Source: a virus
Lineage: Duplodnaviria > Heunggongvirae > Uroviricota > Caudoviricetes
Reading direction: 5' to 3' (one strand)
Length of the DNA: 14,262 nucleotides
IMG/VR virus record: IMGVR_UViG_2695420747_000011
Location: 1 to 14,262 of that record
The notes under the pieces are model-generated. The model was given only the letters and a program-made list of their open reading frames with translations. It was not told the DNA's origin and searched no databases. The first letter of the stretch is position 1; every line of letters starts with the position of its first letter. Below, piece by piece: positions 8,927-9,448 of the stretch. The position numbers and the translations under genes were made by a program.

Positions 8927-9265
8927 ATGGAATTTAAAGATTTACCTCCTTCAATCCAGGAGATTGCAGCACACACACTTCGTCATCGTCTGAACGAACT
9001 TGAATTGGAATCGGTAACAAAAAAAGACACTGATAATATGGCTCGTAATGTGCGCGATGCGTTTACTGGGCTGTTTTCAGATACAGCTTTAAATATCCAT
9101 GGCACAGAGGATACAGCAAAACAATTTGCAGAAAAAGAAGTGGAAGATCCCAGCTCAAAGAGCCAGAAACAGCCAAACAACCATGAAATTAACGAACTGC
9201 TTCTGGCAACAGGCTTCATAAATATTAACGAATATGAACGCCGTAAAAAAATGTTATCTGATTAA
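8927..9265 (+). CDS. hypothetical protein (113 aa)
   Basis: ATG 8927 with GAGG 6 nt upstream (the track start 8915 lacks an SD). MEFKDLPPSIQEIAAHTLRHRLNELELE...; no recognised motif. Confidence 0.5.
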   Translation: MEFKDLPPSIQEIAAHTLRHRLNELELESVTKKDTDNMARNVRDAFTGLFSDTALNIHGTEDTAKQFAEKEVEDPSSKSQKQPNNHEINELLLATGFININEYERRKKMLSD

Positions 9266-9448
9266 TCCATCAAGATATCTTTTTAGCATCAGCGTTTCTA
9301 CGTTATTAAAACCATCAGATTTTAACATAGCTTCGATTCGCTGATTTAAATTGCCAACTAACTGTTGATACTGAGTAGATGGAAGCATGTGTACCAGCTC
9401 CTTGAGAACACAATAACATGCACCAAGTTTTAACTCCTGCTCTGACAT
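9254..9448 (-). CDS. hypothetical 64-aa protein, opposite in orientation to the surrounding operon
   Basis: ATG 9448-9446 is preceded by GGAGGATAAA. MSEQELKLGACYCVLKELVHMLPSTQYQQLVGNLNQRIEAMLKSDGFNNVETLMLKRYLDGLIR has protein-like composition. Its 3' end overlaps the 3' end of the 113-aa gene by 12 bp (convergent). Confidence 0.4.
   Translation of the reverse strand: MSEQELKLGACYCVLKELVHMLPSTQYQQLVGNLNQRIEAMLKSDGFNNVETLMLKRYLDGLIR

Follow-up and report, generated by a model that had tools for sequence, protein, structure and literature searches.

A described counterpart of the gene analyzed here, in place and orientation, is the superinfection exclusion gene sieB, known from phage lambda and the Rac prophage. 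It is a lone opposite-strand gene inside the early-left operon, downstream of the first early genes (N in lambda; ydaG and ydaF/DUF1391 in Rac) and upstream of the kil/cell-division-inhibitor region. In lambda, sieB occupies 34482-35036 on the plus strand, within the pL operon and directly next to N; in Escherichia coli K-12, the Rac sieB gene lies on the opposite strand between the KilS small RNA (sRNA)/kilR and ydaF (DUF1391), and overlaps ydaF by 4 nt. SieB is a membrane or membrane-associated protein. The second described system that concerns us is IraP (YaiB), which blocks the delivery of sigma-S to ClpXP by RssB. This anti-adaptor sequesters RssB and so stabilizes sigma-S (PMC6546054; PMC10057817). 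The RssB variant D104N is reported to be of key importance for sensitivity to IraP, and there are probably more RssB inhibitors than the three anti-adaptors known so far (PMC6546054). Here we analyze the 14,262 nucleotides of IMG/VR record IMGVR_UViG_2695420747_000011 (positions 1 to 14,262; this whole stretch is called the window below), which come from a lambdoid (Rac/Qin-like) E. coli prophage whose integration site adjoins ompW. Our subject is a minus-strand open reading frame (ORF) for a protein of 64 amino acids in its early region:

9254-9448, minus strand: coding sequence of the 64-aa protein MSEQELKLGACYCVLKELVHMLPSTQYQQLVGNLNQRIEAMLKSDGFNNVETLMLKRYLDGLIR (WP_001295058.1, phrog_4987), based on translation, the PGAP annotation, the ratio of non-synonymous to synonymous substitutions (dN/dS) and an AlphaFold2 (AF2) model
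9454-9458, minus strand: Shine-Dalgarno (SD) sequence GGAGG, seen in the sequence; part of the conserved flank, outside the exchangeable cargo

The start codon ATG occupies 9448-9446 and the stop codon TAA 9256-9254, and the GGAGG motif (9458-9454) is separated from the ATG by the 5-nt spacer ATAAA. A sequence-only reading of the window had already described a minus-strand 64-aa ORF with a near-consensus SD, and inspection of the sequence and its translation confirmed it. Its other descriptive claims held as well. In RefSeq records with an identical or near-identical sequence, the plus strand encodes every other gene annotated from the repressor to the integrase; the segment is AT-richer than its surroundings, with a GC content of 0.32-0.37 over 9200-9450 and 0.51-0.56 over 9450-9800; and there is a 12-bp overlap with the convergent gene, since both frames cover 9254-9265 and the plus-strand stop lies at 9263-9265. 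In RefSeq records, PGAP calls the ORF hypothetical protein WP_001295058.1. The product matches phrog_4987 over its full length (E 3.1e-49, with residues 1-64 aligned to all 64 profile positions); this family carries no functional annotation, so membership leaves the mechanism unexplained. The frame remains open upstream as far as a GTG at 9520 (88 aa), with an in-frame ATG at 9460. No conservation at the protein level is seen in this upstream stretch (9449-9520, minus strand), which shows indel differences among E. coli, Salmonella and Citrobacter. Because it varies by indels between the genera, we regard the ATG at 9448 as the real start and rejected the longer calls of 88-103 aa as the true protein or as a full-length IraP: the upstream frame behaves as a non-coding leader. 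Public gene calls of 76-103 aa (P0004, P0005 and P0006) take in this non-conserved leader.

The argument for selection rests on comparison across genera, as within-species data are uninformative in this respect. The E. coli, Salmonella and Citrobacter genes differ from each other at 20-35 positions in 195 nt, with zero indels and with an enrichment of the differences at third codon positions, and dN/dS is 0.22-0.31 in comparison with the Salmonella and Citrobacter orthologues. Conservation of the ORF in relatives, one of the points by which the sequence-only reading proposed to judge it, was thus found, the same length being kept at 10-18% nucleotide divergence. The 64-aa protein is 86% identical to its homologue from Salmonella (P0003), 72% to that from Citrobacter (P0006), 45% to a 67-aa protein from Edwardsiella tarda (P0008) and 36% to a 65-aa protein (P0009); the two distant homologues P0008 and P0009 also match phrog_4987. 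The family is therefore present in four genera, E. coli, Salmonella, Citrobacter and Edwardsiella, and it is small: a word-indexed search of 5.8 billion proteins returned seven family entries, and no deeper alignment could be built because an exhaustive profile search of 1.84 billion representatives yielded only six matches. No match was obtained by tblastn against 50,697 deposited phage genomes or by phmmer against PDB sequences, and neither an exact-pattern scan nor a family scan of GTDB species-representative genomes found any, showing that the family is absent from the representative genomes. In all five prophage early-region contexts that we recovered, the gene is opposite in strand to its neighbours and its 3' end overlaps or adjoins a convergent gene. 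We conclude that the 64-aa ORF is a genuine protein-coding gene under purifying selection.

The distribution of the gene was checked at the locus itself. Of 5426 complete E. coli genomes, ~152 contain the DNA of the ORF and 4745 its flanks. Using a 26-nt piece of the flank (ATTTTATCCTCCATTGAGGTTACTGG) as anchor, we surveyed 51 IMG/VR contigs and the RefSeq loci for the content of the slot. One conserved SD/ATG serves as the start of at least six unrelated ORFs of 61-102 aa on the minus strand:

64-aa gene: identical intact protein in 29 loci (27 IMG/VR contigs and two RefSeq records)
99-aa ORF: weak match to the ECs1072 family
69-aa ORF: phrog_4274
80-aa ORF: zinc ribbon-like, phrog_10133
102-aa ORF: YmfI family (NCBIfam, E 1.6e-30)
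61-aa ORF

It is implausible that six unrelated frames should stay open for 61-102 codons from a single ATG by chance, and this is therefore independent evidence that the platform is translated. The SD sequence GGAGG was unchanged in all 56 loci examined, regardless of the cargo type. Alignment with prophages that hold other cargo delimits the exchanged part:

9079-9445, no strand: variable cassette, comprising the 3' part of the plus-strand gene and the entire minus-strand ORF

According to BLAST mapping, the right junctions fall at window positions 9441-9447 in all six cargo types, that is, within a few bases of the ATG, and the left junctions at 8949-9134, inside the convergent plus-strand gene. 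In prophages that lack the 64-aa ORF, similarity restarts at 9441-9447 and runs right through the SD and the ~87-nt leader to dicF. Among E. coli prophages, the block 8927-9560 shows 0-2% divergence, while the ydfA-like gene, the pre-dicF region and dicB differ by 9-30%; a near-identical block amid such diverged flanks indicates a recent spread of the module by recombination. The DNA to the right of the ORF (leader, SD and ATG) forms a fixed platform for expression, on which recombination has swapped at least six unrelated small genes.

More than one cargo gene may be present. The 69-aa cargo gene (phrog_4274 type) accompanies the 64-aa gene on the same strand in two genera: in Citrobacter it immediately precedes the 64-aa gene, in tandem, and in Salmonella it is found ~490 nt downstream. 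From this co-occurrence we conclude that counter-oriented cargo can be stacked into a small unit:

L060 290-499 and 637-831, L057 4001-4195 and 4687-4896, plus strand: 69-aa gene and 64-aa gene occurring together

Some copies of the cargo are damaged. The 64-aa gene has an 11-bp deletion at window 9269-9279 in L005, causing a C-terminal frameshift, and an insertion of ~1.2 kb at window 9303-9309 in L019; the 99-aa cargo has early stops (after 8 or 16 aa) in 5 of its 12 copies (L008, L022, L025, L031 and L038).

The position of the gene can be compared directly with that of sieB. The plus strand of the window carries, in this order, the LexA-family repressor, a DUF1391 (ydfA-like) gene, the 112-aa convergent gene (8927-9265), the DicF sRNA, dicB, ydfD, a RecE-like exonuclease, xis and int. 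Since the DicF sRNA gene is present, the early operon is of the dicBF type:

9789-9840, plus strand: DicF sRNA gene (Rfam RF00039, 76.7 bits)

In the dicBF-type early operon of Qin, a long untranslated region precedes dicF (PMC5069750), and the leader of the 64-aa gene falls inside such a region upstream of dicF. The 64-aa gene thus occupies the sieB position of a dicBF-type prophage. The likeness is one of place and orientation and does not extend to the product: there is no sequence similarity, SieB is absent from the Pfam, PHROG and NCBIfam matches of the 64-aa protein, and SieB has 162 aa in Rac and 184 aa in lambda. The proposal of the sequence-only reading that this is a counter-oriented accessory ('moron') gene within a dicB-type early operon is borne out by its patchy presence, deviating composition, exchange slot and sieB position, and we consider it very probable that it is a real accessory gene in a swappable slot.

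All cargo types share the DNA that precedes the start codon, in which the following elements can be recognized:

9449-9535, minus strand: conserved leader of ~87 nt common to all cargo types, from alignments; a predicted 5' untranslated region
9512-9535, minus strand: hairpin GCCGGA..TCCGGC at the start of the leader, from folds
9542-9570, minus strand: candidate sigma-70 promoter TTTTCA (9570-9565), 17 nt, TAAACT (9547-9542), from a position weight matrix (PWM) scan

The candidate promoter scored 10.8, and only 10 sites on both strands of the whole window reach a score of at least 10. Transcription is predicted to start near 9535, the -10 element ending ~7 nt before the hairpin. In loci with replaced upstream DNA, a -10-like hexamer still precedes the hairpin by 0-6 nt (TAAAAT in L029, TAAAGA in L032 and L043, TATAAC in Salmonella, TATAAA in Citrobacter). 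These retained hexamers fit a transcript that would start at the hairpin and carry an 87-nt leader. On the other hand, several results weigh against the explanation proposed below: a strict consensus scan detected no promoter directly upstream of the 64-aa gene, a strict scan for intrinsic terminators gave none on either strand, and the leader fold was not significant (z = -0.66 against shuffled sequences, with no covariation). For this last reason we do not claim a regulatory leader RNA that sequesters the SD, for which three hairpins had been predicted. The K-12 Qin prophage keeps the conserved region to about window position 9500, with no SD/ATG and no cargo. The candidate promoter (TTTTCA-17-TAAACT) and the hairpin are conserved there in the absence of a cargo gene (L063 ~2543-2700, corresponding to window 9500-9570), and this promoter, if active, would give rise to transcription antisense to ydfC.

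Morons of lambdoid phages are extra genes, independently transcribed, that lie between conserved neighbours. The 64-aa gene shares with them presence or absence between related prophages, deviating base composition and the form of a small opposite-strand unit. It differs in that no terminator of its own was found, and in being exchanged against alternative cargo at a fixed leader/ATG junction instead of simply being inserted between genes.

What the protein does was approached through its structure and through profile comparisons, both of which the sequence-only reading had recommended. AF2 predicts a three-helix bundle (pLDDT, the predicted local distance difference test, 80) with helices at residues 3-20, 24-44 and 49-62. 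By inspection of the sequence, there is no hydrophobic stretch of membrane-spanning length, and the protein is soluble. Structure searches returned only generic helical bundles. Sensitive profile searches placed the protein in phrog_4987 over its full length, and their sole functional lead was a weak similarity to IraP (PF10796, NF007598, PDB 8GKV). Both proteins are small, all-helical and cytoplasmic, and have in common the C-terminal motif [DE]-x3-L-x2-Y-[VIL]-x2-L-[LI]. They differ in length (86 aa in IraP) and in genomic location, as K-12 iraP is a chromosomal gene between ddlA and phoA, and the 64-aa gene lies in the counter-oriented prophage slot at ompW.

Several comparisons point to IraP. 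With the Pfam model PF10796 (Anti-adapt_IraP), the Edwardsiella protein P0008, which has no spurious extension, scored 24.5 bits (E 4.6e-5), above the gathering score of 23.2; P0004 reached E 0.0018, and the matches of the 64-aa protein, P0004 and P0008 all lie in one common register. The 103-aa Citrobacter entry P0006 scored 24.2 bits, partly via its probably untranslated N-terminal extension. With the NCBIfam model NF007598 (equivalog cut-off 78 bits), P0008 gave 17.3 bits (E 0.005) in the same register as with PF10796 and P0006 gave 26.8 bits, compared to 136 for a genuine IraP. Alignment of the family with the IraP alignment by hhalign (P 3.7e-4) covered 56 gapless columns and equated residues 10-64 with IraP 28-83. 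In a decoy test, the hidden Markov model of the family scored a median of 12.4 bits on 12 real IraP sequences, a value reached by 2e-4 of 4800 composition-matched shuffles, and reversed sequences gave at most 1.4. The helices predicted for IraP (2-38, 42-58 and 67-82) have breaks that coincide with those of the 64-aa protein at an offset of +18 (AF2, pLDDT ~80 for both), so that the three-helix arrangement with breaks at IraP 39-41 and 59-66 is found in both predictions. Invariant residues of the two families coincide as well: A10/A28, L30/L48, L55/L73, Y58/Y76 and L62/L80 (64-aa family/IraP). NCBI names the Citrobacter and Edwardsiella relatives 'IraP'; in the case of the 103-aa Citrobacter entry, both this name and the Pfam score above the threshold depend in part on the spurious extension.

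However, a considerable number of observations weigh against this relationship or against its functional consequence. The 64-aa protein itself scored only 14.4 bits with PF10796 (E 0.062), below the gathering score, and had no match to NF007598. The probability assigned by hhalign to the family-IraP alignment was just 36%, the alignment with P0008 alone was weak, and BLASTP of P0008 against IraP gave no match. IraP was not among the matches of the exhaustive profile search at E <= 0.001, and the solved IraP structure 8GKV was absent among the structural matches listed. In the register in which residue i corresponds to IraP i+18, the 64-aa protein has no equivalent of IraP residues 1-18, and the L9S mutation within these residues, reportedly described by Bougdour et al. 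in 2006, is said to inactivate IraP. In the literature, we found nothing relevant on WP_001295058.1 or on phage-encoded IraP. Taken together, we put homology of the 64-aa protein to IraP at slightly better than an even chance, and consider it rather unlikely that the protein has RssB anti-adaptor activity. Judged by family membership it is no IraP; it is at most a shortened, phage-borne IraP-like protein.

The explanation that we propose is as follows. The 64-aa ORF is very probably a functional moron-type gene in the counter-oriented slot between the ydfA-like genes and dicF-dicB of the early (pL-like) operon. Its leftward transcription would start at a weak sigma-70-type promoter of its own (-10 at 9547-9542), run into the ~87-nt leader and be both opposed to the repressed early operon and independent of it, so that the product would be made in the lysogen. 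With lower confidence, we suggest that this product is a distant, N-terminally shortened relative of IraP. It would bind a host protein, most likely RssB, the response regulator and ClpXP adaptor; such binding would slow down the RssB-dependent degradation of sigma-S and would shift the lysogen to the general stress response. This chain as a whole, including the mechanism, is put forward tentatively, with a probability somewhat short of one half. A more far-reaching version holds that these proteins are the first phage-borne homologues of the Ira anti-adaptors, shortened IraP mimics in E. coli (including O104:H4 and ATCC 25922), Salmonella, Citrobacter and Edwardsiella. Acting either as constitutive anti-adaptors or by a dominant-negative effect on their partner, host IraP, they would reprogram how RssB/ClpXP controls sigma-S, and the plug-and-play platform that carries them, swapping at least six genes at the start codon, would be an undescribed hotspot for lysogenic-conversion, defence or anti-defence genes. 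We regard it as quite unlikely that this version holds in full.

Alternatively, the protein may act on incoming phages or on host immunity as a small cytoplasmic factor for exclusion, defence or anti-defence that has nothing to do with RssB, like sieB and ral at the matching place in lambda. The position and orientation of the gene equal those of sieB in lambda and Rac, a slot with at least six exchangeable small genes is the typical pattern of a phage accessory hotspot, and the sequence is AT-rich, all of which speak for such a factor. The sequence-only reading had thought of superinfection exclusion, toxin or anti-defence cargo; its assignment to the accessory genes stood, and these specific classes found no support, since no PADLOC, toxin/antitoxin family or SieB match was obtained. 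In particular, the defence models of PADLOC-DB matched neither the 64-aa protein nor its relatives P0008 and P0009, homology to SieB and a membrane-spanning stretch are both missing, and the sole family-level signal is that of IraP. We therefore judge a defence-type function to be unlikely, while still deserving serious consideration.

A further alternative concerns the convergent neighbour:

8927-9265, plus strand: convergent 112-aa gene (MEFKDLP...), with a phrog_2151 match and a Salmonella homologue

Its product has 112 aa from the ATG at 8927 or 116 aa from the ATG at 8915, and matches positions 1-101 of the 212-position phrog_2151 profile (E 2e-55). A full-length homologue of 119 aa exists in Salmonella (L059 4163-4522, minus strand, as counterpart locus). 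The N-terminal ~50 aa are conserved across prophages and the C-terminal part changes with the cargo type, the total length ranging from 112 to 216 aa. PGAP labels 8927-9077 as a truncated pseudogene; despite this label, it is probably a real gene. The two could form a two-gene module, in which the C-terminal part of the 'MEFKDLP' protein, exchanged along with the 64-aa gene, would have the 64-aa protein as its regulator, inhibitor or chaperone. Indeed, the variable cassette always holds a cargo ORF together with a cargo-specific C-terminal part, and in both E. coli and Salmonella the pair stays together with overlapping 3' ends. In Citrobacter, however, the 64-aa gene directly adjoins the DUF1391 gene and no 'MEFKDLP' gene is called between them, the convergent neighbours in the Edwardsiella and P0009 contexts are of other sizes, and several of the C-terminal parts may simply be read-through into cargo DNA up to a chance stop codon. 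These observations make a two-gene module improbable.

The same convergent layout raises the question of a role at the RNA level. As the frames overlap and no intrinsic terminator was found, mutual antisense of both 3' ends is possible. Leftward transcription could then collide with, or be antisense to, the early operon and damp read-through into the toxic dicF/dicB, the ORF being incidental; the conservation of the candidate promoter and leader even in K-12 Qin, where the cargo ORF is missing, would agree with this. It does not account for the purifying selection on the protein, for the lack of indels across genera or for the constant length of homologues with only 36-45% identity, and six unrelated ORFs starting exactly at the conserved SD/ATG make sense only if translation matters, so that we regard an RNA-only role as highly improbable. 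Finally, that the ORF is a decaying or non-functional relic of a cryptic prophage, annotated merely because it is open, is hardly credible: the damaged copies mentioned above and the lack of any publication found on the ORF would suit it, but 29 loci encode the identical intact protein, dN/dS is well below one and the family extends over four genera.

Some further features of these prophages deserve mention. Between positions 8600 and 10000, the window shows 100% identity to isolate AF39 and 99.7% to the O104:H4 outbreak strains. The repressor is swapped between otherwise near-identical prophages (window 7717-8490 versus L002 2448-2867): it is of the LexA/S24 type in the window and in AF39, and a short helix-turn-helix protein in O104:H4. 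This difference reveals a mosaic exchange of the immunity region directly beside the conserved ydfA-dicF block. The only strict-consensus sigma-70 match in 8500-10300, TTAACA-16-GAGAAT at 9923-9950 (minus strand), is located between dicF and dicB, where an active promoter would give rise to an antisense RNA of DicF. The same prophage carries a type I toxin-antitoxin locus, in which the sok antisense RNA (1855-2030, minus strand; Rfam RF01794, 117 bits) adjoins the hokD toxin gene. In the Salmonella prophage that contains the orthologue, the region L057 924-2249 (minus strand) comprises three copies of the C4 antisense RNA and two of isrK interleaved with Phage_ASH genes, a repeated region of the immunity/antirepressor type.

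To summarize, the annotation of the ORF as a hypothetical protein was already known, and accessory genes directed against the early-left operon, such as sieB, are a known kind. The fixed leader/ATG platform on which dicBF-type prophages swap at least six cargo genes, the placing of this cargo in a small family conserved across four genera, and the weak but coherent link to IraP appear to be new; our literature search found no paper on the platform, the family assignment or the IraP link. Should the IraP-like reading be wrong, the 64-aa gene would be one more small hypothetical prophage gene. If it is true, prophages of clinically important E. coli and Salmonella would carry their own regulator of sigma-S stability, which would provide a direct prophage route to altered stress tolerance and virulence-related gene expression of the host and would add a fourth, mobile member to the RssB inhibitors. 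Whatever the function of the protein, modular exchange in lambdoid phages is possible with the precision of a start codon, and the leader/ATG junction is a simple DNA anchor for a systematic harvest of the uncharacterized accessory genes of DicF/DicB-type prophages.

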